The position numbers and the translations under genes are program-made. From contig WELB01000003.1 in the NCBI GenBank assembly GCA_009602725.1, positions 1,277,500 to 1,325,303 on the forward strand: DNA of 47,804 bases, given 5' to 3'. Under the pieces are notes generated by a model that saw only the letters and a program-made list of their open reading frames with translations, was not told where the DNA came from and ran no database searches. This DNA is from Spirogloea muscicola. Its lineage: Eukaryota. This document shows positions 1-47,797 of this stretch, one piece after another (position 1 is the stretch's first letter; the number at the start of each line of letters is the position of its first letter).

Positions 1-3000
1 GGTGGCCGCCGGGGCCGGCCAGGCCGGCCAGTCCCACCCGCGCCGTCCCCACCCACGCCTCAGCACTGGCAGTGGCTGGCCGGCCTCGACCTGGCAGCCG
101 TCCACCGCCAGGCGGCCCTCCCGCTCGTCCGCCACGTTCCCCGCTGGGTGCGTCCACACATTCGCCGCGCGCTTCGCCCGGCGATGCAGCGGATTGTCCG
201 AGACCATCGGGACGAGGCGGCCTGGAAGCAGTTCCTCCTCTTCCCCCGGCTACTGCTCGGGCGCGTCCCCAACGACGGCCGCCGGCAGGGCCAGCAGCCC
301 CTCCTGGAGCGCGTCCAGATGTTCGAGGGCGGCCAGTGGGAGGAGCTTCTGGTGCGCCACGATGCAGCGGTGGCCGCCTCGGCGGCAGACCATGGGGCCA
401 CGCGGGCCGCGCCAGCCGGGGCCGCCATTGTCCGCTGGGCGCTACGCTTCGACCATGCGGGCGAGTTGTCCAGGGCGGTCCAGGCCCTGGACGACTCGGT
501 GCTGGCGCCCACCAACGCCGCCACGCGGGCGGCCCTGGACTCCCTGCACCCTCCGGCGCGCAACCCCCTGCCCCCTGGGCTGGACACCTTCACCCCGCTG
601 GAGGAGGTGGTCCTCGACGCCGACGCCCTGCGGCAGGCCCTGCAGAGCAGCCGCCACGCAGCCGCTGGAGGTCCTTCCCACATGCTCACCGAGCACCACC
701 GGGAAAGCTTCTTGGAGGGGGACGCTGCCGACTTCGCGGCGCTCCACCAGGTGTGCCAGCTCCTAGCTCGCGACCAGGTCCCAGCCAGCGTTCGGGACGT
801 CCTGTGCGCCAGTACACTGCTGGCGCTCAGCAAGGCCGGCGGAGGGGTCCGGCCCATCGCCATCGGGGAGGTACTCTACCGTCTGGTGGGGCGCGCACTC
901 TGGCAACAGCACGCGGGGCAGGCCCAAGCACACCTGGCGCCCCAGCAGTTCGGCGCGGGGCTGCGGAGCGGCGGCGAGACGGTCGTGCACGGCGTACGGG
1001 CCACCCTGGACCTGCACCCCGAGTGGGTGGCTATGGCAGTCGATGTCCGCAATGCTTTCAATAGCGTTGATCGGGACTCATTGCGGAGGAGCTGAGAAAG
1101 ACCTTCCCCAGCCTTCTTCCCTTCTTCAGGCTGGGGTACGGTCGGCCAAGTGACCTGCTGTGGCGGACGGAGGGGGGAGCGGTGGAGACCCTCCACTCCA
1201 CCAGGGGTGCACGTCAAGGGGATCCACTCGCTGGATTCTACTACGCGCTGGCACACCATCGCGCGCTCCAGGCAACGGTCGCGGCTCACCCTGGCGTGCT
1301 GGTGCCGACTTACGCAGATGATACCACTCTGGTGGGACCGCCTGCAGACGTCGTGGCAGCCTTTGCTACCCTCCAGGTGCAGCTGGGCGCGATCGGCCTG
1401 GACATCAGGGCGGACAAGTGCTGTGCCTGGTCCCCGGCAGGTCCCCTGCCAGCCCACCTGGGCCTGCCCGTGGGCTGCCAGACACCGGCCGAGGGTCTCA
1501 CTCTCCTCTACGTCCCCCTGGGCGCACCTGCCTTCGTGGCGGAGCAGCTGCAGGGGCGGCTGCAGGACCACCTCCGGCCGGCGGCCCGCCTGCACACGCT
1601 GAACGACATGCAGCTGGCAACCGCCATGCTGACCCGGTGCATCACGCAGCGGCCCCACTACCTGGCCCGCACCGTCCTTCCCTCACCGGCGGTGACGGCA
1701 GCGTATGAGGCCTTCGACACTGGCATTATGGCGGCCGCAGCCTCCCTCGTGCAGCACCCGGCGTTCCTCACCACCCAAGCTGCGCAGCTGCAGGCCAGCC
1801 TGCCGATCAGTCGTGGCGGCTTGGGATGCCGCTCAGTTGCCCGCGTCTGTGAGGCGGCCTTCCTGGGAAGCTGGGCGCAGGTGGCCGCCCCCATGTGTCA
1901 GCGGTTCCTCGTGCACGGACAACGCGCCCTGGAGCGGGCGGCAGCCGATGTGGAGACAGGCCACCTCCCCTTCCAAGTCGCCCTCCGCACTGCCCGCGAC
2001 AGGCTCCTGCAGGTCCACCCCAACATGTCCGAGCAGACTGTTCCTTTCCGGCACCTCGCCCACACTCCAGACCTGCGGGCTCAGGCACGCTTCACGGCAT
2101 TGGTCGAGAAGGCGGCCTCCGACCAGGCGGTGGAGCTTCTCCCTCCGTCTGACGTTCGCGGGCGTGCTCGGCTTCTCTCCGCCTCTTCCCCTGGGGCGGC
2201 GGCGTGGCTCCAAGCGCTCCCACTCTATGCCGCACTTACCATGCCCGACGAGGTCTACCGGACGGCGGTGCATCGGCTCTTGGGGCTCCTCCCTCCCTGC
2301 CTTACAGGTGTCACACAGTGCGAGTGCGGCGCCCGGCACGCCGACCCTGCGGAGCTGGCCGCGCACATGCTCCGTTGCGCCCACGGAGGCGAGCGGACCG
2401 CTTCCCATGATCTTTCGCGCGATGGTATGCAGGGGGTGTTCATAGAGGCGGGCTTCAAGGTGGCGGTGGAGTGCTCCTCAGTCATGCCCATCCTGCCGGG
2501 CGAGGACGGCCGGTCGCACACCCGACGCGTCGACCTGGTCGCTATCCCGCCCGGCGGCGGTCCCCGCATCATCGCTGATGTGGTGACAACGGACAGCTAC
2601 GACTCCGGCAACCCCACCAGGTCGGCGTCGTTTGCAGGGCATGCAGTAGGCCTGGCAGCCCGGGCAAAAGAGAGAAAATATGCCGATCACCCGGTCGGTG
2701 ATGAGTTCGCGGCCCTGGCGATAGATGTTCACGGGGCCTTCGGCAGCCGCTGGCTGGATCTCCTCCAGCGGCTTGCTCGTCACGCTATTGATCGGCGGTC
2801 GGGTCCGCCCGGGGCGCTGCCCGGCTTCAACGCCGCCGGGTCGCTCGCCCAGGTCTTTCGCATGCGCTTGGCGGTATCGTTCCAGCGATCCCTTGCCCAC
2901 GCTGTCCACACGCGCGCAGGACGCGCTCTGGCCGCGGCCTCCGGGTCTCGGCGGAGTGCCTCCTTCCCTGCCTCGAGCTACTCGGACCTGATGTTGCTCA

Positions 3001-3014
3001 CTCGCGGGTACTGA
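1..3014 (+). pseudogene. RT-RLE polyprotein ORF of about 1000 aa within the window, broken by one 1-nt frameshift near 1073-1077
   Basis: The frame of ORF 148..1095 is open from position 1. After NAFNSVDR the homologous text continues in the other frame (LIAEELRKTFPSLLPFFRLGYG...GARQGDPL), joining ORF 1182..3014. One extra base in GATCGGGACTC restores a single frame. Confidence 0.88.
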
Positions 3015-3150
3015 GCTTCCCTAGTATGTTGTCGTGATTGGTAGAGTAGAGGAGTCCTTCCTCGGCATCTCATTCTTCGGCTTTGGACATTGTCCATTCT
3101 TTTTGGGCTGGCTTTGCCAGCCCCTCTTTCTCTATGGGCGAGCCTTCTTC
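1..3150 (+). mobile_element. Near-intact non-LTR retrotransposon of the RLE (R2-superfamily) type, CRE-clade-like; 5' end lies outside the window
   Basis: RT motifs GVRPIAIGEVLYRL, QFGAG..GGETVVH, VDVRNAFNSVDR, GARQGDPL, YADD and GGLG are followed by a CECG..H..C zinc knuckle, GGERTASHD, RRVDL, ADV, KERKY and LAIDVHGAFG (PD-(D/E)xK restriction-like endonuclease). The 3' UTR carries a hairpin module and a CTTCTTCTT tail at ~3143-3152. Confidence 0.93.
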
Positions 3151-3167
3151 TTAGAGAAAGAGGCGTC

Positions 3168-3582: not shown

Positions 3583-3844
3583 ACCTTGTCAGCGCTTTTC
3601 GGGCTGGCTTCTCACTCCTGGCTGATGAGTCAGATGACTACCTGGTTCACCATAATAACGAGTTTAACAGCACGACTCCCCAGCCCAAAGTCTTCACCAA
3701 ATATATCTACTGAAAGAAAAGAAGGCGTAGCATTTCGCAAGAATTGGGAGAAGCCAAGCCGAGCCAGTAAGCTGTTTAGGCGGCTTGTTTGCCCAAAGAA
3801 GGGGTGTCCTAGCAAGATGGACTTATTTCATTCTGATGTTATCT

Positions 3845-3970
3845 TAGGTACCTTAGATTAGGTCTCCGTATTATGTAGCATTGTTTAGTCTGCACTCGAC
3901 TCTGCCTGAACAATGTATTGGCTTGAATTGGCCTCCCTTTCAATTCATGCGCCCCGCGCGCCTTCTCTCT
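3845..3970 (+). repeat. Dispersed ~125-bp repeat ('type E' terminus, ends gcgccccgcgcgccttctctc); probable retroelement 3' UTR
   Basis: Near-identical copy at 26298-26421, diverged copy at 11812-11940 and partial inverted copy at 8800-8868. Confidence 0.8.
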
Positions 3971-7560: not shown

Positions 7561-8587
7561 AGCCGTCAGCAGCACGGCCCTCCAACTCTGGTCAGCTCAT
7601 AGTGCTTCAACCCGGCGGCTGTTGAGCATGTGGAGCACGCGAGGCAGGTCGGCAACTCCGCAGCGGCACCCCGGCAAGCGCTCCCTCGACGGCCTTCCGG
7701 TGACGGCCTTCCGCTGACCACCGCGGCGGCACAAGCTTCGCGTGCCGTGGGACGGCACAGCGGTCTGCCGGCCGGAGGTAGAAGCGGAGGCGGCCAGGCG
7801 GCGCGGCCGGGCGCCGCGGCGGAGCTTGGGGACGGGGAGCCGGGGGGCGGAGTTGGTCGCAGCGGAGGACGACTGCGGGCCGCGGGGCGGGGGGGCTCGG
7901 CAGGCTGGCCGGCTGGCTACGCCGCCGCGCGGGGTTCGGAGGGGTAGCGGGGGAGTGGCGCTGGGAAGGACCAGACCTGCCGTTCGGAGAGAGCCGATAG
8001 GAGCGGTGGTCGTTGGTGTCTGCGGAACGTGGGGAAGGGCACCGTCAAACCCCACTACAGCCGTCCCACGCATGCGGGGGCCGTCCCGCCCCCCGGCCGA
8101 CGGCCCGGCCACGTGTCGGGGAGGTCAAGGCCCCGCCCAGTCGCCCGAGGCAAGGGCGCGCCTTGGTCGGGCTGACGACGATGGGCAGGGGGGTGGCCTT
8201 GGCGATCTTGGCCCCCGGTCGCCACGTGGCGGCCGACTGCCGGGCCGATGGGCCGCATCCGGCGGCGGCCGCGGGCGCAACGGTCGCGCGGCGCCGTCGG
8301 GGCGGGCCGGCCGACAGTCGGGCGACTCCGCCGGACGATCGCCGGGTCCCCGCGGACAGTGGCCATTGGAAAAAGAATTTGGGAAAAGCTTCACTTTCTC
8401 CCCATTCGTTACTTTCGCCGACGAGGCCGCCCCCGTCGGGAGCGGCGCCGGATGGTTCCGGGCGCTTTCCGGCGGCGACCAGCCGGCCGGCCCGGCGTGC
8501 GACGGCCCGTCCCTACGGGCTCCCCGTCCAGGACAACCTCCAGGACCGGAAATCCGAACGACCCGAAGGCGGAAGTTGGGCGTCGCG

Positions 8588-8795
8588 GAAGAAGAAGTGG
8601 CATTCCCAATGGGGGCAAGGGCTGCGAAAAGCCAGCCCAAAAAGAATTGACAAGGGTTTTGGAGGGGCCTACAAGCGATTAGCAGCTACAAAGGGGCCGG
8701 AAGATGCTATGTCAGAACAGGGGGAAGGATGGTTCACTCAGTAGGTACGAGTGAGTAGCCTCAGATCCGACAGACTAGTTGCCGGGAAACTATCG
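8588..8795 (-). mobile_element. CRE 3' fragment (subfamily ending LLTRTY)
   Basis: Minus strand reads DSFPATSLSDLRLLTRTY*, then a UTR and hairpin module. It parallels 39105-39310. Confidence 0.85.
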
Positions 8796-8991
8796 GGAAG
8801 AAGAGAGAAGGCGCGCGGGGCGCATGAATTGAAAGGGAGGCCAATTCAAGCCAATACATTGTTCAGGGGAAGAAGAGAAGAAGAGAAGGGGCTCGACCAT
8901 TGAGGATAGGGGCTGGACAAGCCAGCCCAAAAAAAATTTAACAAAGAGCCGCGGATCTCGTCCTCGCTGCCGGTCGCCCGACCTCCACGGC

Positions 8992-9118
8992 CAGGCCTAG
9001 CAGTCGGCCGCCCGGATGTTTCCTGTCAAGTCCTGATCGTCCTATGTTTGGGCAGGCCTAGCAGTCAGCCGCCCGGATGTTTCCTGTCAACTCCTGATCG
9101 TCCTATGTTTGGGCAGGC
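8992..9118. repeat. Tandem duplication, 2 x 61 bp
   Basis: caggcctagcagtc(g/a)gccgcccggatgtttcctgtcaa(g/c)tcctgatcgtcctatgtttggg starts at 8992 and again at 9053. Confidence 0.95.
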
Positions 9119-11609: not shown

Positions 11610-12165
11610 CACTCTATTTTTGGGCTGGCCACTCACAGCCATCGCCCACAACTGGAAGCGTCTCTCTCTTCAGCGTTTGTTCGGGCTGGCTTATCACAGC
11701 CCTTGCCCCCAATGGGAGAGCCACTTCTATCTCTGGTCTCTTCTTTTCCTGGTCCCTTTGCCAGCCCCTCTTCTCTCTTCTCTATGGGCGAGCCCTTTCT
11801 TTTTGTCACCTTAGGCACCTTAGTTTTGGTCTCCGTATCATGTAGCCTTGTTTAGTTTGCACTCGACTCTGCCTGTACAAAGTATTGGCTTAAATTGGCC
11901 TCCCTTTCATTCCTTGCGCCCCGCGCGCCTTCTCTCTTTTCCTGATCCCTTCGGACTTTGTCAATTCTTCTTGCTGGGCTGGCCACTCACAGCCATCGCC
12001 CACTACTGGAAGCGACTTCTCTTACATCTTTGGCAGAGAGAAGGCGCGCGGTGCGCATGAAATTGAAAGGGAGGCCAATTCTAGCCTTAACAAATGTCCT
12101 GTAAACTGGGTAATGAGCTGGCTAAGGGGGACTAGAGGCAATGACTATGAGAGGCCAGCCCAATG
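11610..12165. repeat. Stack of retroelement 3'-end modules in both orientations
   Basis: GGGCTGGC..CAGCC modules at ~11622, 11683, 11750 and 11976 (+) and ~12150 (-); type E terminus 11812-11940 (+); type F terminus 12036-12135 (-). Confidence 0.8.
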
Positions 12166-21068: not shown

Positions 21069-21357
21069 TCTGCGGGGAGGTGCAGCTCGGGCGGCTGCTG
21101 CAGCAAGCTGGGGAGTTGGAAAAGGTCTTGTCCATTCTTCTCAAATTTGTGATTGTTTGGTCTCTACATGTTATGGTTATTCGCGTATTCTAGTGGGGCT
21201 GGCTGTTCACAGCCTCTGCCCGCTTTGGGAGAGCCACTTTCGTGGACGACGCTGGACAAATATGACCGTACAGCAGATTTGTCGGAAAACCACGCTCTGT
21301 GGAAGCCCCCGCCGCGGCACGCGGCGCGGTTGCCGGCGCGCGCGGCGGCGGCGGCGG

Positions 21358-21838
21358 NNNNNNNNNNNNNNNNNNNNNNNNNNNNNNNNNNNNNNNNNNN
21401 NNNNNNNNNNNNNNNNNNNNNNNNNNNNNNNNNNNNNNNNNNNNNNNNNNNNNNNNNNNNNNNNNNNNNNNNNNNNNNNNNNNNNNNNNNNNNNNNNNNN
21501 NNNNNNNNNNNNNNNNNNNNNNNNNNNNNNNNNNNNNNNNNNNNNNNNNNNNNNNNNNNNNNNNNNNNNNNNNNNNNNNNNNNNNNNNNNNNNNNNNNNN
21601 NNNNNNNNNNNNNNNNNNNNNNNNNNNNNNNNNNNNNNNNNNNNNNNNNNNNNNNNNNNNNNNNNNNNNNNNNNNNNNNNNNNNNNNNNNNNNNNNNNNN
21701 NNNNNNNNNNNNNNNNNNNNNNNNNNNNNNNNNNNNNNNNNNNNNNNNNNNNNNNNNNNNNNNNNNNNNNNNNNNNNNNNNNNNNNNNNNNNNNNNNNNN
21801 NNNNNNNNNNNNNNNNNNNNNNNNNNNNNNNNNNNNNN
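21358..21838. other. Assembly gap (481 N)
   Basis: Run of N flanked by a (GCG)n tract on the left and CRE RLE sequence on the right. Confidence 1.
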
Positions 21839-22369
21839 CGCGACGCTCGTCGGGCACGCGGTCGCTCTGGCGGCTCGGAGTAAGGAGCGCAAGTACTCTG
21901 ACCACCCTCCAGGCGATGCCTTCGCGGCACTGGCCATTGACGTACACGGGGCATTTGGCAGTGGCTGGTTGAATCTCCTCCAGCGGCTTGCCCGGGAGGC
22001 CATCGAGCGGCGGCAGGGTTCGCCAGGCTTCAATGCTGCCGGCTCCCTCTCGCAGGTCTTTCGGATGTGGCTGGCGGTCTCGCTGCAGCGCTCTTTGGCT
22101 CATGCGGTCCACGCGCGGGCTGGCCGTGCTATGGCTGCTGCTTCCGGGTCTCGGCAAAGTGCCGCTTCTCCTGCTCCGAGTTACTCTGATCTGCTGTTGC
22201 TCACACGTGGATACTGAGCAGCCATCTGCATCTCCCTCTGCACCATCTTGCACTTTGTAGTGTAGTCCTTTTTCAGCACCTCTTTCTTTGGCTTTGAACA
22301 TTGTCCATTCTTTTTGGGTTGGCTTTGCCAGCCCCTCTTCTCAATGGGCGAGCACCTTCTTCTTTCTTC
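21839..22369 (+). mobile_element. CRE 3' portion of the same subfamily as 1-3150; may extend into the gap
   Basis: GHAVALAARSKERKYSDHPPGDAFAALAIDVHGAFGSGW...SYSDLLLLTRGY* (stop at 22217), then UTR, hairpin module and CTTCTTCTTTCTTC tail. Confidence 0.92.
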
Positions 22370-22785
22370 GCCCGTCGCTTCCATGGTGAACCGGTAGACT
22401 TTCCTGCAGCCGGGTCGCTGGCGCAAGTGTATCGCATGCGCTTGGCCGTCTCGCTGCAGAGGTCCATGGCCCGTGCGCTGCACCTTCGTGCTGGACGAGC
22501 CCTTGCTGCTGCCTCTGGCTCTATCCAGGGGACCCACTTCCAGGACCCTAGCCTCTCTGATTTGCGGCTGCTTAGCAGGGGTTACTGAGTGATCTGTAGC
22601 TGCTTTCTTTCTTTGTGTGCTTTGGTTTCTTAGCGCTTCCTCTGGCTTCCTCTGGCCCCCTTCTGGCTGGCTTTGCCAGCCCCTCTTTCTCTATGGGCGA
22701 GCCTTCTATCTTCTCGTTCTTTGTACATTCTTTTTTGGGCTGGCTTGTCCAGCCCCTATCCTCAATGGGCGAGCCCTTTCTTTTC
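22370..22785 (+). mobile_element. 5'-truncated CRE copy (subfamily ending LLSRGY) directly abutting the previous tail
   Basis: ARRFHGEPVDFPAAGSLAQVYRMRLAVSLQRSMARALHLRAGRALAAASG..LSDLRLLSRGY* (stop at 22588); close relative of 26636-27109. Confidence 0.9.
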
Positions 22786-23230
22786 TTAGTGCTTCGCCTT
22801 AGTGCTTCGCCTGGCCCTTCTTCTTGGGCTTCTTGTACTCTGCTCATTCTTTTTTGGGCTGGCTGTTCCAGCCCCTATCCTCAATGGGCGAGCTCTTTCT
22901 TAAAAAGCGCACCCAGTGGCCGCTTGAGTCCCTGTGTGCTTAAGCGCTTTTTCTGGCTCCTTACCTCTGTTGATCACCTGTTTCTGGGCTGGCCAATCAC
23001 AGCCATCGCCCTCTACTGAGGCTTTCAACCGGCCCTTTCAGACCTTGTACAGTCCTTTGGGCTGGCCTTCCACAGCCACTGCCTTATGTTGGAAGAGCTG
23101 TCTCTTTTCCATAGTAAGAAATAGCTCTGTCAAGGTAAGGCAAAGGCTGTGAGAAGATGAAAATGTAAGCTCATTCAAAGGTGGCGAGGGCTGTGAGAGG
23201 CCAGCCCAAAGTACTGAACAAGGCCCAGAA
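22786..23230. repeat. Continuation of the head-to-tail array of 3'-end modules
   Basis: Modules at ~22856, 22986 and 23059 (+) and ~23190 (-), each preceded by a short subfamily-specific UTR piece. Confidence 0.8.
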
Positions 23231-23708
23231 GACTGCCGTCGCCGCCTCGCCAGTCGTGCCCCTGCATGGTTCGACCCCTGCCGTGGTCTGAAGAGCCCAA
23301 ATTCTTCTGTTGGCAAGACCAGCAGCAGATTCCCGCCTGTCTTCGCCTGCGCGCCGGCTCTTGCAGAGTGCAACTCTGAGAGGCCCAGCCAGGTCACTCT
23401 TTCTGCAACTGAGAGGCGAGCACCCAGTTCCTCCTGTGTCCCGACACAATGTCTCAGTCCTATGGACTGTCACACAGAGAGATCCAAGGGGTTTGCCTTG
23501 AGCCGCGGGCCAGCCAGCGGATGGATTGTCAAAGTCAGTCTAGTCAGAGTCCGACACAGTCTCTGCTGCATTGTGCATCAGTGTGATCAAAGTATCACAA
23601 GCAGACGCAGTGCCTGGTACCACAGGGGCAGGCATGCATGGATGTACAACCATATTTGGTTGCTGAGGAAGAGAGGGCCCTGGTTGTGGCACGTTGAGGA
23701 CAGGCGTC

Positions 23709-25819
23709 TTAACCACCATAGCGCTCTTGCAGTGCAGGAGGTGGTAGCTCTGTCATGATGGAGGGGTTGCTGTCCAAGTACTGGCGAATGGTAGTGGTGC
23801 GATCAGCCAGGAACGTGGCATCCAAGAATGAGTCGCAGGCCTCCTTACCAAGGGTTTCAGCTGCAAGGACGCTGCACAAACACAGCCCCCTTCTGCGGCA
23901 ATGAGGAGTACAATCCAGGCATTCACTCTGATATGTCAGGACTCCTCTACCATGTCAGGGAACAACTAACGTATGAGTCAAATATAGGAAAAGGAAGGCT
24001 CCCTGGTAACAATGTACCCTGCTCACCAGTGGCGGAGGTAAACACGGCATGGAAGTATATCGTCGATCCAGATTTTGTCAATGCCATACCGACCATATCG
24101 CCTATGGTATTCGTCCTCGCTGCCTGCAGCCGCTCCTATAGCCTTTACTTGCTGGGTTTGTGGTTTGAAAGCATGCATGCCACCATATCATCACTCCTTT
24201 TCAATGTCTACACAAAGCAACCTGTGTACGCTGTGCCTTCGTCAATCAAGGATTCTCAAGCAATGGCCAGATACGATCAGCACACCTTGGCAGCGTACTG
24301 AACGGTACTCTTCATTGCTGTAACGGCTGCACAACACCTTACAAGCATATACAGTTGTTGTCAATAATGTTGTCAGCATAAATTGTCAGAAGTTGAAGTG
24401 GAAGCCTTTAAGGCAGCGTGTGGTCACATCTGTACTACTGTTCATGTTCTTTAGTTTGGTGGAACATAAGAAGCCCTGCAGGCCGTGCAATGCATGTCCA
24501 AGTTTCTCAAGATGCCCTGGGAGCTATTAGCAGATAATAGTTGGTTAGAGGACATATTTTATGACTTACTGCCCGTCTCCCCAAGGCTTGGCCATCAAGA
24601 GATTCCGACACAACCTGAGATGTCATCGTCCAGAGTTCCCAATGTTGAAATGGAGAAAGCACTTCACAAAGCACAGAGGATTCTCCAGGTTTCTGGTACT
24701 ACGTTTGTACCAGCAATCTGATAGATGCAAATGAGCCCATGGAATTCTACTTGCAAAGGGAGGAATGAGTGACCAGATAAGAAGACTACGTTGAGGACTT
24801 GCGCTAGGAATAAGCTGATGGCGGTAAAGGCAGCCTTACAGCAAGAAAGCGGAATTCATGCTCCCTCTCAATGAATGCGGGTACCTGTGGTAACCCACGG
24901 TGTATAAGCGTGCCTCCTGAATGGAGCTCTGACATTGCTATTCAAATCCATGCAAGCTGCTAATCTACTGCGACTACTATGGTGATGCTCTGCTCAAACG
25001 AGCCCGTAAAGCCTGAAAGTAGGGATTGCAAAGTGAAAGCTGACACTTTGCAGTGGGCTGATTTTGGGGAAAGATAGAATCGTAACATCTGATTCATGAT
25101 TCAAGTGTTAGTACCTCCGACGCCTTGATCTCAAAGACCGTCACAGTTATGTTGCTATGATCTGCTGCTTCTGCACTCAGACTTGACATCTCCTGATTGT
25201 CAACCACCATCGAAGGCAGAGACAGCCACGTGAGCAAGAAGACAAGAAGCAATATCAGAAGAGCAACATCCTTACTGCTTACATGCCTTTTGACCTGCTT
25301 GCAATCTCCAATGCCTGTAAAGAGGCAAGATAAGTAAGACTTACCCTAGTGTTCATATCTGCGATGCCTCGCTGTAAGAAGACCGGTGCCACATGTGCAA
25401 ACACACGGCGAAAGCCCCTGACACGAGCAGTGCGGAAATGCTTCAGCTCCGGGAATGTGTATCTTGCACTTCTCTCTGTCAAGCAACGAGGAGCTCATCT
25501 CTCAGCAAGTTAAGCTGAAGCAAGTGAGCTTCGACGACAGGCAGGCAAATCTTGCCATGCAGCAGACCAGTTGGCGGCAAGACTAGAGCAGCTACAGTGA
25601 AGCTGACTTGACTTTCACCAACATACCTGACAGCAACGACCCAAAGCCAGCAATGGACAGGTACCCGTCCTCGTCAACGATAGTACTGAAGGCGCGAGCA
25701 TCCTCCATCTCAAAGGGAGCAGCATTGGGAGAAGTTGTTCGATCGTCGGACAGGACACCTCCAGCTCGTGGCCGCCTACCAATTGCTCCGATGGTCCGTT
25801 CAGGATGATTGCTATCCAT
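23709..25819 (-). CDS. Conserved plant/algal protein of unknown function with a GGCT (gamma-glutamylcyclotransferase)-like GFGSLL motif; a further upstream exon (to ~26151) is possible
   Basis: Exons read YLSIAGFGSLLS|ERSARYTFPELKHFRTARVRGFRRVFAHVAPVFLQRGIA, VTVFEIK, VPAFIEREHEFRFLA, VLCSRYSNEEY, RYGRYGIDKIWIDDILPCRVYLRHC and VLAAETLG..FLDATFLADRTTTIRQYL..LQERYGG*. Splice phases are consistent where checked. Confidence 0.85.
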
Positions 25820-26297
25820 CTCTTGAGAATCTGTCGCGGATGCGTTGTTGGCGGCTACTCCTTGCTACAGACCGGAAGGCAAAGCCAGAACAGAAAATTG
25901 GATTGAGCCTCCAAAGCAGAGGCTCCATCCAACTTGCTTGCATAACGAGAGATAAGCCAAAGTCACCTCATCATCGGCCTTCTTCGTGTACCTAGAGGCG
26001 TAGGCCCCACAGCCAAGCACGCCCTCGACAGGACGGCACTCCTCCCCACTGCCGCCGCAGCGGGCGTCGCAAGCACGCGGATGGTCTGCTGGGGGCAGCG
26101 CTGCAGACCGCCAGTGCAAGGGCAAGTGCGGGCGAGAGTGCGCCCGCTCATATCTCCTCAAAGAGCCAGTAGTATCCTCTCAACGGCAGCTTCGACGCCC
26201 CTGAGCCACGGCAAAGGGCGCGCCGCGCGCCTGCCGGCACAGGGCGCGCGCGGCAGCCGCGGCGGAGGCGGCGTCGGGCGCCCGCTCCCCTTCTTCA

Positions 26298-26421
26298 GAT
26301 ACCTTAGATTAGGTCTCCGTATTATGTAGCATTGTTTAGTCTGCACTCGACTCTGCCTGAACAATGTATTGGCTTGAATTGGCCTCCCTTTCAATTCATG
26401 CGCCCCGCGCGCCTTCTCTCT
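26298..26421 (+). repeat. Type E 3'-terminal repeat, flanked by CTTCTTCA direct repeats
   Basis: Near-identical to 3845-3970. CTTCTTCA occurs at 26290-26297 and 26420-26427. Confidence 0.8.
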
Positions 26422-26477
26422 TCTTCAATGACTCGCAGATGTGCTTTCCGGCTGAGATGCGCTTGCCAGCTGCACAT

Positions 26478-27370
26478 GAGAGAGAAGGCGCGCGGTGCGC
26501 ATGAAATTGAAAGGGAGGCCAATACTAGCCTTCCAAATGTCCTGTTAACTTGGTAATGAGCTGGCCAGGGGGGACACTAGTATCCCCGGGTGAGCACATG
26601 CATATCTGACAAGCTATACTGAGGAGCCCAAAACCTGCTCGGGCCAAAGAGCTGAAGTACGCGGATCATCCGCGGGAAGACGAGTTCTTCCCGTTGGCCA
26701 TCGACACACATGGGGCGCTGGGAGCTCGGTGGCTCGAGCTGCTCACCCAGCTCGCCCGCCACACCATCGCCCGGCGCTTCCATGGGGAGCCGGTTGACTT
26801 CCCTGCAGCCGGGTCGCTGGCGCAAGTGTATCGAATGCGCCTGGCCGTCTCGCTGCAGAGGTCCATGGCCCGGGCGCTGCACCTTCGTGCCGGCAGAGCC
26901 CTCGCTGCTGCCTCTGGCTCTGGCCAGGGGACCCACTTCCAGGAGCCCAGCATCTCTGATCTGCGGCTGCTTAGCAGGGGTTACTGAGTGTCTCGTAGCA
27001 GCTTTGTTTCTGTTACTTAGCGCTTCCCCTGGCCCCCTTCTCGTACTCTGTTCATTCTTTTTCGGGCTGGTTGTTCCAGCCCCTATTCTCAATGGGCGAG
27101 CACTTTCTTCAAAACCACCACCACGGAAGCCACTAGCCTGGGCTAAAGCACGACCAGCACGCTCGGGAATAGCGAGTGCTTGGGAGCGCTGCAGACTCAA
27201 TGATAGCCGCATTCTATAGCATGCCACGATGGCTTGCGGGACGCTAGAATGGCCTAAGCTACCGGCCCGAGTACGTCGGCGGGCATCAACATGCAGTGCC
27301 AGGCGATGGAGGAGGGAAGACCACTTCGTTCTGTAGCCGCCGTACATGTCCATGGCGCATATCAGTCGTT
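26478..27370 (-). mobile_element. CRE copy (subfamily ending VLTRGY with type F 3' UTR), split by a nested insertion
   Basis: MDMYGGYRTKWSSLLHRLA..YRMRLSLSLQRSQALAIPERAGRALAQASGFRGGG (27370-27117) resumes as ..PQYSLSDMHVLTRGY* plus UTR ending gcgcaccgcgcgccttctctc (26635-26478). An uninterrupted relative lies at 37745-37972. Confidence 0.88.
26636..27109 (+). mobile_element. 5'-truncated CRE copy (LLSRGY subfamily) nested in the opposite-strand copy, with a 6-7 bp TSD
   Basis: KELKYADHPREDEFFPLAIDTHGALGARW...ISDLRLLSRGY* (stop at 26987), then the hairpin module. CAAAACC occurs at 26629-26635 and 27110-27116. Confidence 0.92.
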
Positions 27371-30347: not shown

Positions 30348-30394
30348 CTAAACCCTAAACCCTAAACTCCTAAACTCAAAACCCGAAACCCTAA
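30348..30394. repeat. Degenerate interstitial telomere-like repeat (CCCTAAA)n
   Basis: taaaccctaaaccctaaactcctaaactcaaaacccgaaaccctaa. Confidence 0.8.
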
Positions 30395-30424: not shown

Positions 30425-31330
30425 CTGCGCCTGGGAGCGCTATAGACTCAATGATAGCCGCATTCTGTAGCAGGCAACGATGGCTTGCGGGACGCTAGAA
30501 TGGCCTAAGCTACCATATAAAAACTGTTAGGTATAGAAATGGGCGTTCTGTTCAGGTCGGCCATCGGGCTTGGCCGTTCTCGCTTTATGGAGAGCTCACT
30601 GCCATCGAAGCCATCGCCCCTTTACGGGAAGGGTCATTCTCTCCCACATTCACTGCACTAGCTTTTGGCCTGGCCTATATTGGCTGGCTTTTGCCCTCCC
30701 TTTCAGTCAGGAAGGAAACAAGAAGAAACGGCTCTTCCAAAATTGACAGCAAGGAAACAGCTCTTCCAATGCAACTGCTGCTCAGGGACACTAAGCTCCC
30801 CTTTGCAGTAGTCTCTTGCATAGCTGTCTGGTTATGGGGCCTTTCGGCCCTTTGGACCTTGTCCATTCTTCTGGGCTGGCCAATCACAGCCCCCCCCAGA
30901 GGTCAGCCCAAACAGCTCTTCCAATGAAGGCAATGGCTGTGAGAGGCCAGCCCAAAGCAATGTACAAGGCCTGAAAGGGCCGGACGGCGCAATACAACAC
31001 GATAAGCCATGCGCGCCCCGCACATTATCCCATATTTGAGCTTGGGCTTCCCCATAGCCGTCCAGTCTTCTGGGTTAGGCCTGGCCACCGGCCACCTGTT
31101 GGAAGTGCATGGCCCCTTCAGGCCACTGGCTTCCGTGGCAGCGCTCCGGCTCCTCAAATCAGCCAGTCGGATTTGTATATGCTCACCCGTGGGTACCAAC
31201 GTCAACTTTCCTTCAGCCACCTGAGCATAGGGCTTCGTTTTGTGTTGCCCCACTCTTTTGCACTAGCTTTTGCCTGAACAATGTAATGGCTTGAATTTGC
31301 CACTTTCATATATGAGCACCGCGCGCCTTC
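30425..31330. mobile_element. Nest of short CRE 3' relics and modules
   Basis: 30430-30514 matches 27180-27263 (minus). Modules lie at ~30873 (+) and ~30915-30955 (-). 31030-31200 reads ..SDLYMLTRGY and is followed by a terminus ending gcaccgcgcgccttc at ~31330. Confidence 0.75.
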
Positions 31331-31935
31331 TTGTTAGCATCCATTGGTCCAGCATCGACGCACATCGCTGGCCACGCAGTGGGCAGTGCAGAACAAAGAA
31401 AGCTGCAGCACTATTCCGATTACCCCCAATGCGATCAGCCAGCGGCAGTCGACATCTTTGGCTGTTTAGGTCATCGTCTCCACCCTCTCCTTCAGAATAT
31501 TGCATATCTAGGCTACACACGACATGCAGATGTGTTCCCGGCTGAGATGGGCTTGCCAGCTGCATATCTGTCGTTCTTGCGACGGCGAATTTCGGCCTGT
31601 TTGCAGCGTGCTCAGGCTAATGCTTTGCACAAGAAAGCTGGGCAAGCTCTAGTTGGTGGCAGAAGGGCCTCATATCTGCCATCTAGTATTCAGGCATCAA
31701 TTAGCAACCTTTATGTTTTTGACCCGTGGTTTCTGAGCTGGTCAATCTGCTGTAATTTATGTAGGTCTTCAGATGTGCTTGCCTTTTGGCCTTGTGGTAC
31801 TTGGCCATTTGGCCTTCGTTTGTTTCAAATACACGAAACATTTTCATTGGCCACTTGAGTCGCTGTGTGCTTGGGCGCGTTTTCTGGCCCCTTCCAACTA
31901 TATTCATTCTTTTTCCAGGGCGGCCAATCACAGCT
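31331..31935 (+). mobile_element. 5'-truncated CRE copy of a divergent subfamily (RLE C-terminus plus UTR)
   Basis: IAGHAVGSAEQRKLQHYSDYP..PAAVDIFGCLG..FLRRRISACLQRAQANALHKKAGQAL is homologous to FAGHAVGLAARAKERKYADHP..ALAIDVHGAFG..FRMRLAVSFQRSLAHAVHTRAGRAL. Confidence 0.85.
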
Positions 31936-32256
31936 ATCAGGTAATAGAGTTTGAACTAAGTGATAGAGGGCCTGAGTGGCCAAGTACGAAGGCAAGCACA
32001 TTAACAGATGTACATCACCTGCTGCTAAGCTGACCTCTTCTGAGGTAAATGGCAATATTTCTTCTCTTCACAAGTACATTTTCTCCAAACCCGAGCCATC
32101 AGGTAACAGAGTTTCTACTAAGTGATGGAGGGCCTGAGTGGCCAAGTACGAAGGTAAGCACATTGACAGATGTACATCACCTGCTGCTAAGCTGACCTCT
32201 ACTGAGCTAAATGGCAAGATTTCTCCTCTTTTCGAAGTGCATTTTCTCGAAACCCC
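31936..32256. repeat. Tandem duplication, 2 x ~162 bp, immediately upstream of the quinone oxidoreductase
   Basis: atcaggtaa..agggcctgagtggccaagtacgaagg(c/t)aagcacatt..gtacatcacctgctgctaagctgacctct..aaaccc starts at 31936 and again at 32098. Confidence 0.93.
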
Positions 32257-34317: not shown

Positions 34318-35244
34318 GGACAGTCTGTTAGGCACTCACTTGCTGTGTGTTGGCTGCATAGACCGTGCTATGATGGAAGTGCATTGCTCACCATGCCCAA
34401 TAATTTGGCTATAGCTGGCTAGCTGCCAGGATAGCCAATCCTACATATTTATTTGGGCAATCTGTGTTTGTGCAGGTTGATCTAAGAATGACAAAGCACA
34501 TTAAATCGCAGTAGACATAGTTTGTCTGCGGCTGTAGATAATTGGTAAGCATGCAATTGCAGCACTGAAACTCTCGAATGTGGAGCTCATGTCATTGCTG
34601 GGAATGCCCCATGCTGAGGCAAGTGGGTTCCTGGCACAGCAATCACAAGCGTGTGCCACCATGCAATGCAAGGGCCACTTGATCACTGCCAACCTATGTA
34701 GCTTATAACGGAAGTTGTACTTACGAATCAAACACGTAGATGTATATTCAATGCAAGGGTCAGACAGACTGTGCAAGGGAGCAATCCGCGAATGGCTCCC
34801 TTGCTACGTGATGGTTTGCAAGTGCAAGGAAGGCCCATCGAGCCCTGCCAGGACACAGACGAATTTATGCCAATGGTTTGAGCAAACGAGCCTGCCTGCT
34901 CGTTGGCAAGGGTCTGCCACCTGCGAGGAGACTCAGTTCCTTTCGCAAGAGAATTTCCACATCGCCCTGGCTGTGGATTGCCAAGGGGGAAAGGTAGTTG
35001 CTCTGTTGCTTATCTGTGTAGACTGCAAGGCCAACACCTCCACCGAGGGTCCTGAGCAAGTGGTCAGGAAGAAGACTGCAAGGACAAAGGCTGCAACTTA
35101 TAAGCCAGATAAGGCGATCGTCCGATGAAGTGCGCGAGCTAGCCACTCTTGTGGGAGAGCCCCTCACCTTCTGTCCTTGTTCCTTGTCCGGTACCTTGTG
35201 TCAAAATCCCTTTCCGGCTGGCTGTTTGGCACAGCCCTTATTAA

Positions 35245-35397
35245 AGAAGGAAAGCAGCTGCAAATCACTCAGTAGCCCCTGCTAAGCAGCCGCAAATCAG
35301 AGAGGCTAGGGTCCTGAAAGTGGGTCCCCTGGCCAGAGCCAGAGGCAGCAGCAAGTGCCCGGCCCGGCACGAAGGTGCAGCGCAAGGACCATGGACC
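35245..35397 (-). mobile_element. CRE 3' fragment (LLSRGY subfamily)
   Basis: Reverse complement matches ~22460-22610 (ALHLRAGRALAAASGSGQGTHFQDPSLSDLRLLSRGY*). Confidence 0.88.
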
Positions 35398-35785
35398 GCT
35401 TATTTCCTTCATTGGGAGAGACACTTCTGTTGTCGCTTTTTTGGTTGCCTAGGCTGGGCAAGGGCCAAGCAGCTGGGCGCCACTTGTGACGGCTCCACCC
35501 GACGTGTGGGCCCCGCCTTCCGGCGCCCCCGGGAACCCCGTCGGCGCGTCACGCCCAGAGACGAGCTGCAGCCCCCGCCTTCCGCGCTCCCGCCGCCGCC
35601 GCCGCCACCGCCGCCGCGCCTCCCGCCGCGTGCCGCTGCGGATCACGCGCCTTGGGGCTCGCGCGACGGCGCCTCTACTTTAGCGAGAGCGGCAGCGCAA
35701 CCCCTCGCCCGTCGCCCAGCACCATCTCCGTGCAGCCGTTGGCGCCTCCTACGGCAGCAGCGCAGGAGCTCCCGGCGCGGCCGCC

Positions 35786-38829: not shown

Positions 38830-39720
38830 AAGAAAAGACTTTCGTGTATTTGAAACAAACGAAGCCAAGTGGCCAAGTACAAAGGCAAGCACATCTAGAG
38901 ACGCACATCACCTACAGCAGATTGACCCGCTCAGTAACCACGCGTCAAACCATAAAGGTCGCTAATCGATGCCTGAACACTAGATGGCAGATACGAAGCC
39001 CTTCTACCATCAACCATTCTTTTTGGGCTGGCTTTTCGCAGCCCTTGCCCCCATTGGGAGTGCCCCTTCTTCTCTTAACTAGAGCTTGCCCAGCTTTCTG
39101 GTGCAAAGAAGAAGTGGCACTCCCAATGGGGGCAAGGGCTGCGAAAAGCCAGGCCAAAAAGACTTCACAAAGGTTCAAAGGGGCCTAAGAGCGGTGAGCA
39201 GCTACAAAGGGGCCTGAGGATGCAATGGTAAAACAGGGGGAGGATGGATCACTCAATAAGTACGAGTGAGGAGCCTCAGATCCGACAGACTAGCTGCCGG
39301 GAAGCTATCACCCTGACGAAAGCCAGAGCCCGCAGCGAGAGCACGGCCAGCTCGCAGATGCAGAGCGTGGGCCATGGACCGCTGCAGGGATACAGAGAGG
39401 CGCATCCGATATACCTGAGCCCACGAGCCCGCGGCGTTGAAGTCGGCTGGCTCGCCGCGTCTGCGGGACACAGCCCGCCGCGCAAGCCTAGCCNCTGCTA
39501 AGCAGCCGCATAAGCTGTGTGGTTCGGGCCCTTCACTCTTCCAATGTAAGAAAGAAAGAGAAGTGGCTCTTCCCTCTCTGGCCGCGCTTCTCTTCACTAT
39601 GGGCGAGCACTTGCTCTCTGCCAAGAAGAAGGGCTCGCCCATTGAGAATATGGGCTGGAACAGCCAGCCCAAAAAAGAATGAACACAGTACAAGAAGAGG
39701 GGGGGGGAAGGGCTGCCTCT
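38830..39720 (-). mobile_element. Nest of CRE 3' fragments from several subfamilies, containing a 62-bp plus-strand module insertion
   Basis: 38840-39105 is the inverse of the 31625-31840 type. 39105-39492 reads ARRAVSRRRGEPADFNAAGSWAQVYRMRL..LSDLRLLTRTY* plus UTR. A further minus-strand module lies at ~39620-39680. Confidence 0.85.
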
Positions 39721-45021: not shown

Positions 45022-47611
45022 TCATGGCGTGGGGTTGGGGAAGCGAGCATGCACAGCATCAATCTCAGCGAGCGCGGCGGTTGGCACCGCAGTGCTGGCT
45101 GCTGATAGGGCCTCGGCGAGCTGCGTGGAGTTGGAGGCTCCAACGATGGCGCTGCCGACCAGCGGGTTTGCCAGCACGAAAGCGAGCGCCAGCTGCGCGG
45201 GCGTCAGGCCGTGGCGCTCCGCAATGCTGGCATAAGCCTGCACCATCAGCCGCCACACTTTCGGCAATGTCACATCTCGCCATGGCGGTTTAGGACTTGG
45301 GTTTAAGGTCTGGGATCAAGGGCCCAAGCAGGCCAAGCGGACGAGGCAGCCCTGAGGGCAGCCATGAGGGCGGCCCCGCATGCGGCTCACCAGCACAGCC
45401 TCGCGGACGTTGGGCTTGGCGAGGCCGTAGCGGCACTCCGCCTCGGCATACCGCCCGCGGTACTTGATCAGACGCGCCTCTGGCGGCGCAGCACCGCCAC
45501 GGAAGTACTTGCCGGTCAGCAGGCCCATTGCTAGCGGGCTGCACCAAGGGTCAGGAAGGAGGTGAGGAGAGGAGTGAGGAGGGCAGTACGAGCAGGGCAA
45601 TATGGGAGGGTCCAAATAAGGAGGGAGGGTGGGAGGGAGGGACGCCGCCGAGGGAGAGAGGGGGAGTTGGGAGGAGGGGGGTGAGAGGCCAGATTATGAG
45701 CAGCTAAGCTTTCAAGGTCTGGTGGTCTAGGATAATAATTTGTTCCTTTGTTGTTAAATGTCAAGCATCAGAGCAGTGCCCATGCGAAGTGCACCTGTAG
45801 GCGAGGAGGGAGACGCATTCGAGGTGGCAGACCTCCGCGAGGCCAGCGTCGAACGTGCGGCAGAGAAGGCTGTAGGCGTTCTGCACGGTCACGACGCGCG
45901 GGAAGCTGTGCGGTTGCGCCTGCGCGAGGTGCAGGCAGCTGAGCAGCCCGTATGGGGTCTCATTGCTGACGCCCACGTGCCGCACCTGCAGAGGAGGCCC
46001 GCCCGCACTAATCAGCCGGTATTGGAAGCAAATCAATATCTTTCTGTGAAAATCAACCAATAACTTGTCTTGAAGAATAAGCAAAGCCTGAAGCTTTTGT
46101 TCTACTTGTTGAGAGGGGCAGGGTCGGCGGTGCCGACTCTGGCAGCAGCCGCTCAACCAAGGGCGTGTAGCAGAGAGAAGGAGGATTCAAGACTCAGCAT
46201 CATTAGCTTCAGAAGTAACTTGATGTGGGTTGTGAGCTGATTGATATTTCATATGTCAGATTAAGTTGACTCCATGTCCTGCTTCGATCCAGGGCAAGAA
46301 GAGGGAGGGGGGGACCTTGCCTGCGGCAACGGCCTCCCCGAGCGCGCCGAGCTGCTCCTCAAGGCCAGCGGCCGCGGCGTAGCTCTGCTCTGGCCGGTAG
46401 TCGACCTCCCCAAACATGGGCACGTACCTGCAGCCCCACCTCGGCAGCTCTTGAGCCGCAGCAAGACAGTGCAGCGGCGGAAGCTACTGCAGCTTGCGAG
46501 ATGGCGAGCTTATGCTGCTGTGGCTTGCGCTAAGATTAGGCTGCGGCTGAGGCGGCGATTCAGAAGGGGCCGGAGAAAGGTGGGAGGGAGGTTGAGTTGG
46601 TTGATAAAGGATGGAGAAGCTGGAGGGAGGTAGAAGGCAGGACGAGGAGGTGGATGCGGAGGTAATGGGGATCTGAGGAGGGAGGTTGGGGTGAGACAGT
46701 GGGTTTAGCGTCACCTGTCAGGCCAATGCGTCTGATAGAGGTCGACGTAGTCGGTGCGCAGGCGCGCGAGGCTGCCGTCGAGCGCCGCCCGGATGCCGGC
46801 GCCGCTCAGCGCCGGCGGCCCGCCGCGGATCCAAGGCATCTGGCCCGATGGGCCCGTCACCTGGGCACAGCGCCAGTCCGCAAGCTTGAGATCAGAGCCA
46901 CTGCACTCATAAGAGAAAGACTTAATTAGTGGATCTTTCTTCATCTATACTAAATCCTTAAAAGTGTTCCAGTAGGCAAAGCTGACCCTCTTCCATTAGA
47001 GGGCGATGGCTGTGATTGGCCAGCCATAAAGCACCAATTGTAATGGGAGCTGCAGTTGTGGTCGCCCCAACGGCCATTTTACTGTAGAATGTGAGTAGCT
47101 CCCTCAGATTTCGAACCAGGTGTGCATTTCTCGTATCATTTTATTCATGTACCTGTGGCTCAGATGAGCTTACTCATTTCAATAATTTCTATAATAAGCA
47201 AGTGCTCCACTATCTTGCTAATTGAACACCCTAAATTCTTCTGGCGGCACCTTGGTAGCAATTATGATGCGGTCACGGCTGACACCGGCGGCGCGCATCC
47301 AGCGGCCGACGTACTCCTCGGAGCGGCCCTGCCAATGGCGCTCACACTCTCTGTCAGCAAATCCGGCAGAAAACACATTCAGGGCTTAGGGGTATGGTTT
47401 CAGGGTTTAGGGTTTCGGGTATAGGGTTGCAGAAAATTGTGAGATGCGTGGAAAGAAGACAGGTGCCTTCATGGGCGCACCTGAGTGCTGGCCCGCTGCG
47501 GCACGGGGTACATCTCGGCGGTGTCCACGAAGTTGACGCCGGCGTCGTGCGCGAGCGAGAGCTGCGCGGCTGCATCGGCGTAGCTGATGCCCTCCCCGAA
47601 CAGCATGGTGC
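45022..47611 (-). CDS. Aldo/keto reductase, Tas-like; 5' exon(s) lie beyond the visible part or window edge
   Basis: GTMLFGE..GVNFVDTAEMYPVP|GRSEEYVGRW..IIIATK|VTGPSGQMPWIRGG..DGSLARLRTDYVDLYQTHWPDR|..VRHVGVSNETPYG..VQNAYSLLCR..|SPLAMGLLTGKY..|AQLALAFV..SAIVGAS..FPNPTP*. Confidence 0.95.
47385..47428. repeat. Degenerate telomere-like (TTTAGGG)n tract in an AKR intron
   Basis: cttaggggtatggtttcagggtttagggtttcgggtatagggtt. Confidence 0.65.

Positions 47612-47706: not shown

Positions 47707-47795
<89 letters not shown>
47707..47795. repeat. 89-nt poly(A) homopolymer
   Basis: Uninterrupted A run near the window end. Confidence 0.95.

Positions 47796-47797
<2 letters not shown>

Follow-up and report, generated by a model that had tools for sequence, protein, structure and literature searches.

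Between positions 21187 and 23237 of the window, that is, the whole stretch of 47,804 nucleotides of Spirogloea muscicola DNA analyzed here, retroelement 3′ ends follow one another at short distances, and the question is how such an array is built. The sequence-only reading had taken it for a head-to-tail array of elements that insert into the tails or UTRs of their relatives, an interpretation which is partly supported. The account that we regard as probable is that of a stack of 5′-truncated 3′ ends that arose through separate target-primed insertions at CTT/TCT-rich sites and survived mainly between genes.

The retrotransposon family of the array

Every part of the array is the 5′-truncated 3′ end of an element, and all belong to a single family of non-LTR retrotransposons whose endonuclease is restriction-like (RLE, restriction-like endonuclease). 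The reference copy, a near-complete member of this family located at 1–3152 on the plus strand, carries reverse transcriptase (RT), CCHC, and RLE motifs and one terminal module. Its long ORF (bases 1–3014) bears one frameshift near 1090 and terminates in LLTRGY*, and its tail abuts an older copy in the opposite orientation. Both frameshifted halves match RVT_1 (E values of 2.5e-5 and 6.5e-4, each match being below the curated cut-off), QGDP and YADD motifs are present in the RT of the long copy, and PF00078 is found in intact relatives. A relaxed version of the published CCHC/PD-(D/E)xK pattern recovered two of four proteins, P0001 (from residue 417) and P0003, and missed P0004 and P0023; residues C417, C419, H432, C436, H446, D488, and K533 are invariant across 10 relatives. 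Furthermore, the hallmarks of non-LTR elements are present, namely 5′ truncation, a short-repeat tail, and target-site duplications of variable length. As regards the N-terminal C2H2 zinc finger of the CRE clade, a C2H2-like pattern was recognized by eye in the relatives P0004 and P0176, and the window copy begins inside the ORF.

The nearest named proteins to the long ORF are gene models of Spirogloea muscicola, followed by proteins of Klebsormidium and Closterium. In P0006, a translated UTR stretch is the window sequence, letter for letter across 19 residues. A PDB search with an intact relative as query returned no match. From the appearance of its motifs, the family may be CRE-like. It is apparently undescribed: our literature search found no description of it in Spirogloea, and the genome paper, its supplements, or Repbase may cover it.

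Anatomy of the array

To the left of an assembly gap lies a type I terminal module (21187–21241, plus strand, 42.6 bits), and the gap itself, an N run of 481 nt (21358–21838), conceals the 5′ end of element A. This element, on the plus strand, shows the end of the RT/endonuclease ORF (21840–22217, stop at 22215–22217), with 78% amino acid identity to the long ORF and the ending LLTRGY*, followed by a 3′ UTR with hairpin module 22317 and a CTT tail (22218–22369). It belongs to the subfamily of the 1–3152 copy, and 66 of its 96 differences from the long ORF fall on third codon positions. Next comes element B (22368–22782, plus strand), also 5′-truncated, with the ending LLSRGY* (stop at 22586–22588). 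Translation (…LLLTRGY* and …LLSRGY*) confirmed the reported succession of an LLTRGY and an LLSRGY copy, both on the plus strand, and the spacerless join described between them was found as well: the tail of A ends at 22369 and the homology of B to another copy runs from 22368, with 2 nt (TC) shared.

Element B aligns with the single-module copy at 26767–27109 with 311 of 342 aligned bases matching, unbroken through the terminus and module 22738, so this module is B's own terminus. B is bounded by CTTTCTT repeats, the upstream copy lying within the tail of A (22362–22368) and the downstream one at 22776–22782; the chance of a 7-bp repeat is about 3%, and B is probably younger than A. Where this alignment has a gap, the 3′ UTR of B is interrupted by an inserted terminus of 45 nt that belongs to the A subfamily (22665–22709, plus strand). 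This insert, with 47/47 identity to the terminus at 3106, is younger than B; its CTTCT/CTTCT flanks form a 5-bp repeat, which alone is at chance level (23%).

Element D, of a B-like subfamily, begins at the tail of B and comprises UTR and module 22857 (22786–22901, plus strand); its duplication is not distinguishable from terminus homology. The 12 nt between D and E (22902–22913) begin a 9-bp inverted repeat with 22944–22952, as read from the sequence. Element E (22914–23018, plus strand) represents another subfamily, with UTR and module 22987 and no tail, and matches 31845–31938 at 74 of 92 positions. Element F (23029–23106, plus strand), consisting of UTR and module 23060, matches 30912–30983 at 65 of 71 positions and possibly starts as early as 23017; its best flanking repeat, of 4 bp, makes no convincing duplication. 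A search for usable flanking duplications of D, E, and F found none. Tail-to-tail with F lies element H (23116–23237, minus strand), a degenerate inverted module (10.2 bits for its 3′ part) with a partial module at 23116–23156; its 5′ arm, as read from the sequence, lies upstream of the duplication. It is split by element G, a 69-nt insert in its loop (23158–23226, minus strand, module 23206, 38.2 bits). G is flanked by TCTTCT/TCTTCT, a 6-bp repeat expected by chance in about 8.5% of cases, and is probably younger than H. A weak match of the F/H inverted repeat to the known RNA family mir-515 (26 bits, the cut-off being 68) was rejected.

The array thus holds at least five subfamilies of one family. 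The reported series of modules was found at 22317, 22665, 22738, 22857, 22987, and 23060 on the plus strand and at 23206 on the minus strand; this last one had been given as the single inverted module, the partial one at 23116–23156 having been overlooked. That modules start at the previous tail is true for B and D only, since 22665 and 22738 do not, G lies within H's loop, and E is tailless. Considering how 22665 relates to B, B to A, and G to H, the order of the array is nested and not left to right: the relative order of nested insertions is readable from the duplications, and from them alone, and the idea of a linear record is not supported.

The 481-nt gap adjoining the array raises the suspicion of an assembly artefact or of a local tandem duplication, and so does P0021, a Spirogloea model of an 8-kb locus in which the element C-terminus is present in nine identical repeats; these may be genuinely arrayed in tandem, as copies of a single subfamily, or have arisen through misassembly. 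We hold this explanation to be very improbable for the array. Its units are diverse (best neighbor match 65/73) and dispersed copies match better: D matches dispersed copies at 68/73 and 67/73 versus 65/73 for its neighbor, and each array neighbor is closest to dispersed copies except the module labeled C, whose best match is its neighbor D (65/73) by a small margin. Best-match analysis led us to reject local tandem duplication for D, E, F, and G. Furthermore, nesting bounded by duplications is unlike the product of collapsed repeats, and the same architecture occurs at a distance from gaps (8587–8955 and 11615–12163).

To the right of the array, open exon-like frames on the minus strand (23300–26280) suggest a multi-exon host gene; the frames tested gave no Pfam match.

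Terminal modules across the window

A profile of the type I module, built on 19 modules, gave 54 matches at E values up to 5; modules of the array score 30–53 bits, and the best score in 10 shuffled windows is 6.4 bits. The type II terminus, which likewise ends with a CTT/CT tail, has 18 matches in the window. With 56 modules of both types passing the cut-offs in 47.8 kb, the array is not special within the window. The latter is a piece of a gene-dense scaffold on which 10 host genes were outlined, seven of them with Pfam support; 53 of the 56 modules are intergenic, gene spans making up 26.3 of 47.3 kb, with the proviso that these spans are approximate and that three of the 10 genes were delimited from sequence reading alone. 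Family DNA occupies seven of the 10 intergenic intervals and neither of the convergent ones. The sole strong module within a gene span (46989–47033, minus strand) apparently lies in an aldo-keto reductase intron, on the gene's own strand. Two-copy tandem repeats of 162 nt (31932–32255) and 61 nt (8992–9118) start at or include degenerate modules.

Were several modules native to one 3′ UTR, the array would be a single UTR. The four copies with ORF ends that bear on this point (1–3152, 26637–27110, 39105–39471, and 8587–8794) carry one module apiece past the end of the ORF, and the single-UTR reading was rejected. As for the hairpin described as constant, its 6-bp stem is indeed nearly so, with pairing in 95.6% of cells across 19 copies, and the loop and the 3′ half of the module differ between subfamilies. 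A search for covariation of the stem in these 19 copies found none (term 0.05, with 49 of 500 shuffles reaching the score); the stem is nearly invariant, with a two-sided change in one of its six pairs and in one sequence only. Folding of single modules is modest (z from −0.06 to −2.05), and a second small hairpin in the module, 61% paired, was considered and found unsupported. Modules were also sought in 80 metagenome loci of distant relatives (22–42% identity), where type I gave one weak match (E 0.56) and type II none. The grounds for a putative role of the module as an RNA signal are therefore conservation and analogy. An Rfam scan of the window found no family reaching its gathering score.

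Insertion sites in the window

In a second head-to-tail array (8587–8955, minus strand), duplications of a CTT tail, 12 bp and 9 bp long, separate three subfamilies, and an outer 6-bp repeat lies in host DNA; this is the clearest case of one site re-used. Among the other inserts, one in a UTR is flanked by a 17-bp repeat with a single mismatch, one in a hairpin on the opposite strand by a 16-bp repeat, and three in loops or modules by repeats of 11, 10, and 10 bp; an insert in host DNA has a repeat of 8 bp and another in unclassified DNA one of 7 bp. Insertion into the tails, UTRs, and hairpins of relatives is thus borne out by target-site duplications. It is not restricted to relatives: host DNA, with 8-bp CTTCTTCA repeats on either side, surrounds a young type II copy at 26290–26427 (plus strand, element from 26298) that matches the copy at 3842 at 122/122 positions.

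This copy belongs to the youngest subfamily, found at 3842–3970 (plus), 26298–26421 (plus), 8802–8867 (minus), and 11804–11937 (plus); three copies are identical (122/122 and 66/66) and the fourth is at 91%. The repeats of all four begin with TCT or CTT, two being at tails and two elsewhere. Two of them share a 5′ start base, which could reflect a non-autonomous element of about 130 nt or a recurrent stop. A piece of the B subfamily (35243–35400, minus strand) ends at an internal CTT-rich UTR stretch instead of a module and has a 6-bp repeat; internal priming is possible there.

Spacerless joins of a tail to a 5′ end would also be expected if several RNA 3′ ends were copied serially in one insertion, as R2 does in vitro and in vivo (PMC3414825). 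Such template jumping would suit 11742–11951, where two subfamily ends lie within one 17-bp repeat pair, and the B–D and D–E joins, which have no separate duplications. We nonetheless consider it improbable for the array as a whole, given that inner repeats of 6–12 bp part the neighbors at 8587–8955, at 11798/11935, and at the A/B join, and that serial copying cannot yield inserts within a UTR or a loop, nor inverted neighbors.

Preference of insertion

All preference statistics derive from this one window, and insertions and nested events were classified by hand after an unbiased scan of 40 termini. In that scan, eight of the 40 termini had a repeat of at least 7 bp near the 5′ boundary, of which five were accepted. 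Junction searches covered 21 candidates, 12 of which gave at least 7 bp; two were dropped (D as terminus homology, B + D as an alternative reading of B), which leaves 10 hand-curated insertions with flanking direct repeats of 7–17 bp, eight of them inside relatives. Among 2661 random position pairs inside clusters, 3.2% had a chance repeat of at least 7 bp and 0.5% one of at least 10 bp.

The nested events fall in the terminal ~65 nt of their targets more often than expected, these termini making up 27% of family DNA, or 37% when the long ORF is left out. This holds for seven of the eight events with repeats of at least 7 bp (p 0.0007 and 0.006, respectively) and for 12 of the 17 hand-classified events (p 0.0002 and 0.006). 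The unbiased flank test is more modest: family DNA follows 24 of 39 termini, compared with 45% of intergenic positions (p 0.026). Orientation is free of bias. The 24 comprise 13 same-strand and 11 opposite-strand cases (p 0.84), 16 of 31 module pairs within 150 nt are on the same strand, and the longest same-strand run, of seven modules, has a p of 0.48, so the proposed head-to-tail rule is not supported. Of the spacing and orientation statistics suggested earlier, that on spacing alone departs from the null within the window: the median distance between neighbors is 81 nt, whereas uniform placement between genes gives 166–188 nt (0 of 2000 simulations), split modules being counted twice.

The composition of the repeats is instructive as well. 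In 10 of the 11 nested events of like orientation they open with CTT/TCT-like bases, as against one of the five opposite ones (p 0.013). The density of CTT/TCT/TTC trinucleotides per base amounts to 0.178 in sense UTRs and termini, 0.011 in antisense, and about 0.05 in genes; sense UTRs and termini thus exceed genes about 4-fold and the antisense strand 16-fold. Alignment of 18 target sites, a check proposed with the original interpretation, revealed no fixed motif beyond a pyrimidine bias.

These figures bear on the idea that insertion is random, without sequence preference, and that selection alone limits the surviving copies to the little space between genes, crowding making them overlap. 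Family DNA already accounts for 45% of intergenic bases, orientation is unbiased, and the flank test is modest, as this idea would predict. The short spacing, the enrichment at termini, the CTT-start bias, and the repeated use of one site at 8587–8955 argue against it, and we judge it as improbable as template jumping.

A probable mechanism for the growth of the array

In target-primed reverse transcription, DNA is nicked, synthesis is primed on the RNA 3′ end and stops early, and the site is duplicated. For the present family, by analogy with other elements, the protein may bind the 3′ stem-loop of its own RNA, after which a loosely specific endonuclease would nick the target DNA. Priming would work best where the (CUU)n tail pairs with the nicked strand, that is, at CTT microhomology, and reverse transcription would mostly halt after 45–400 nt. 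Every insert would bring a fresh CTT-rich tail and UTR, the duplication would preserve the old site, and selection against genic insertions would confine the piles to spacers. The array is thus likely to have grown because new copies tend toward CTT-rich spots in older tails, and with new tails added and old sites preserved, such piles would be self-reinforcing.

The five opposite-orientation events are mostly without CTT; three of them nevertheless lie in the terminal module, and opposite-strand insertions in the module are beyond the tail-pairing account. They would be explained if the protein recognized the terminal hairpin as DNA on either strand, so that one module of ~50 nt were both the RNA start signal for reverse transcription and the preferred DNA site of the endonuclease. 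This true self-targeting we deem unlikely, though somewhat less so than the other alternatives. It agrees with the concentration of nested events in the terminal ~65 nt (12/17, and 7/8 with repeats of at least 7 bp, against 27–37% of family DNA), with the 16-bp repeat of one of the three opposite-orientation events without CTT pairing (3324/3399), and with three more inserts within hairpin loops. However, the hairpin arm, tried as a fixed-distance target, found no support: GGCTG/CAGCC lies within 15 nt of six of the 18 sites only (25% background, p 0.28), and no motif past the pyrimidine bias emerges. In addition, the cut points differ along the module, host or unclassified DNA is also hit (26290, 8955, and 10808), and 15 of 39 termini have no recognizable family DNA following. 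Separate insertion at CTT/TCT-rich sites is accordingly the reading that we retain.

Comparison with known systems

The array shows a known kind of self-nesting and is not a new system, with Zepp, R1, and Cnl1 arrays as precedents; a novelty of self-made arrays at internal sites does not withstand the case of Zepp, whose arrays, composed mostly of 3′ ends, form at internal sites by nested insertion into existing copies (PMC8226300, PMC3446292). As in Zepp and ZeppL of the green algae Coccomyxa and Chlamydomonas, nesting in Spirogloea gives internal arrays of 5′-truncated 3′ ends. In contrast, Zepp belongs to the L1 clade and forms one cluster per chromosome, whereas the Spirogloea family has a C-terminal RLE motif and its piles, found in seven of 10 intergenic intervals, mix many subfamilies and both orientations. 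R1 in Drosophila 28S genes forms tandem copies split by the target-site duplication, with non-autonomous copies interspersed (PMC3414825). The likeness resides in tandem copies at one site with target-site duplications between them; R1 uses a single fixed target, with a duplication always of 14 bp, as opposed to repeats of 3–17 bp and loose targets in Spirogloea.

The CRE-group RLE elements carry a C-terminal CCHC and RLE pattern (PMC12857005), and one of them, Cnl1, forms subtelomeric arrays (bioRxiv 2021.08.11.455996). The layout of the Spirogloea family is near the pattern of this group (CRE1/2, SLACS, CZAR, MoTeR, FoTeR, and Cnl1), a likeness drawn from motifs, and differs from it by a C-to-H spacing of 12 instead of 7–8 and by SHD in place of RHD. 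CRE-group elements target the spliced leader or telomeres, and no such target was seen among the 18 aligned sites. Most RLE elements have specific targets, in some cases microsatellites, and HERO is largely non-specific (PMC4640811). Finally, in stringent-type LINEs a conserved 3′ stem-loop is recognized and followed by a short-repeat tail (PMC3747384). The Spirogloea module resembles them with its conserved stem-loop and short-repeat tail at the 3′ end, by analogy a putative RNA signal, and differs in that two module types are common to many subfamilies and that no compensatory changes were found in the stem.

Beyond the window

Gene models from other scaffolds (P0002, P0006, P0028, P0069, P0076, P0077, and P0176) stitch together C-termini of different subfamilies, with translated module sequence between the joined C-termini in P0006, P0077, and P0176, and P0038 has sense pieces followed by antisense pieces. 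As these models are spliced predictions that favor same-strand pieces, they inform on clustering elsewhere and not on junction detail. On the reading retained, the analysis accounts for a dense layer of repeats next to genes, by which the gene models of Spirogloea muscicola are corrupted, and extends self-nesting, known from Zepp and R1, to an RLE family with loose targets. If the hairpin were a DNA target, a retrotransposon protein would read one sequence as both RNA and DNA, which would bear on the origin of target specificity in R2-like elements. A radiation of subfamilies would then share a dispersed landing pad of its own making, next to gene promoters and with no host repeat targeted, in a sister lineage of land plants.

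Several features of the surroundings deserve mention. Several genes have family DNA next to their GC-rich 5′ ends (8587, 21187, 26290, 35430, and 39830), and neither the two convergent spacers nor the one preceding the L11 gene contain any; a promoter-side bias is possible, the intervals being too few for statistics. Tail-to-tail pairs, 12 of which lie within 150 nt, form imperfect inverted repeats at 3153, 12023–12035, 23106–23116, 30893–30909, and 39612–39623, and could give hairpin RNA if transcribed. A 90-nt A run at the window end (47707–47796) is possibly an assembly artefact. Short, degenerate, internal 7-mer repeats at 30348–30394 and 47396–47432, one of them beside a family cluster, resemble the plant telomere repeat.
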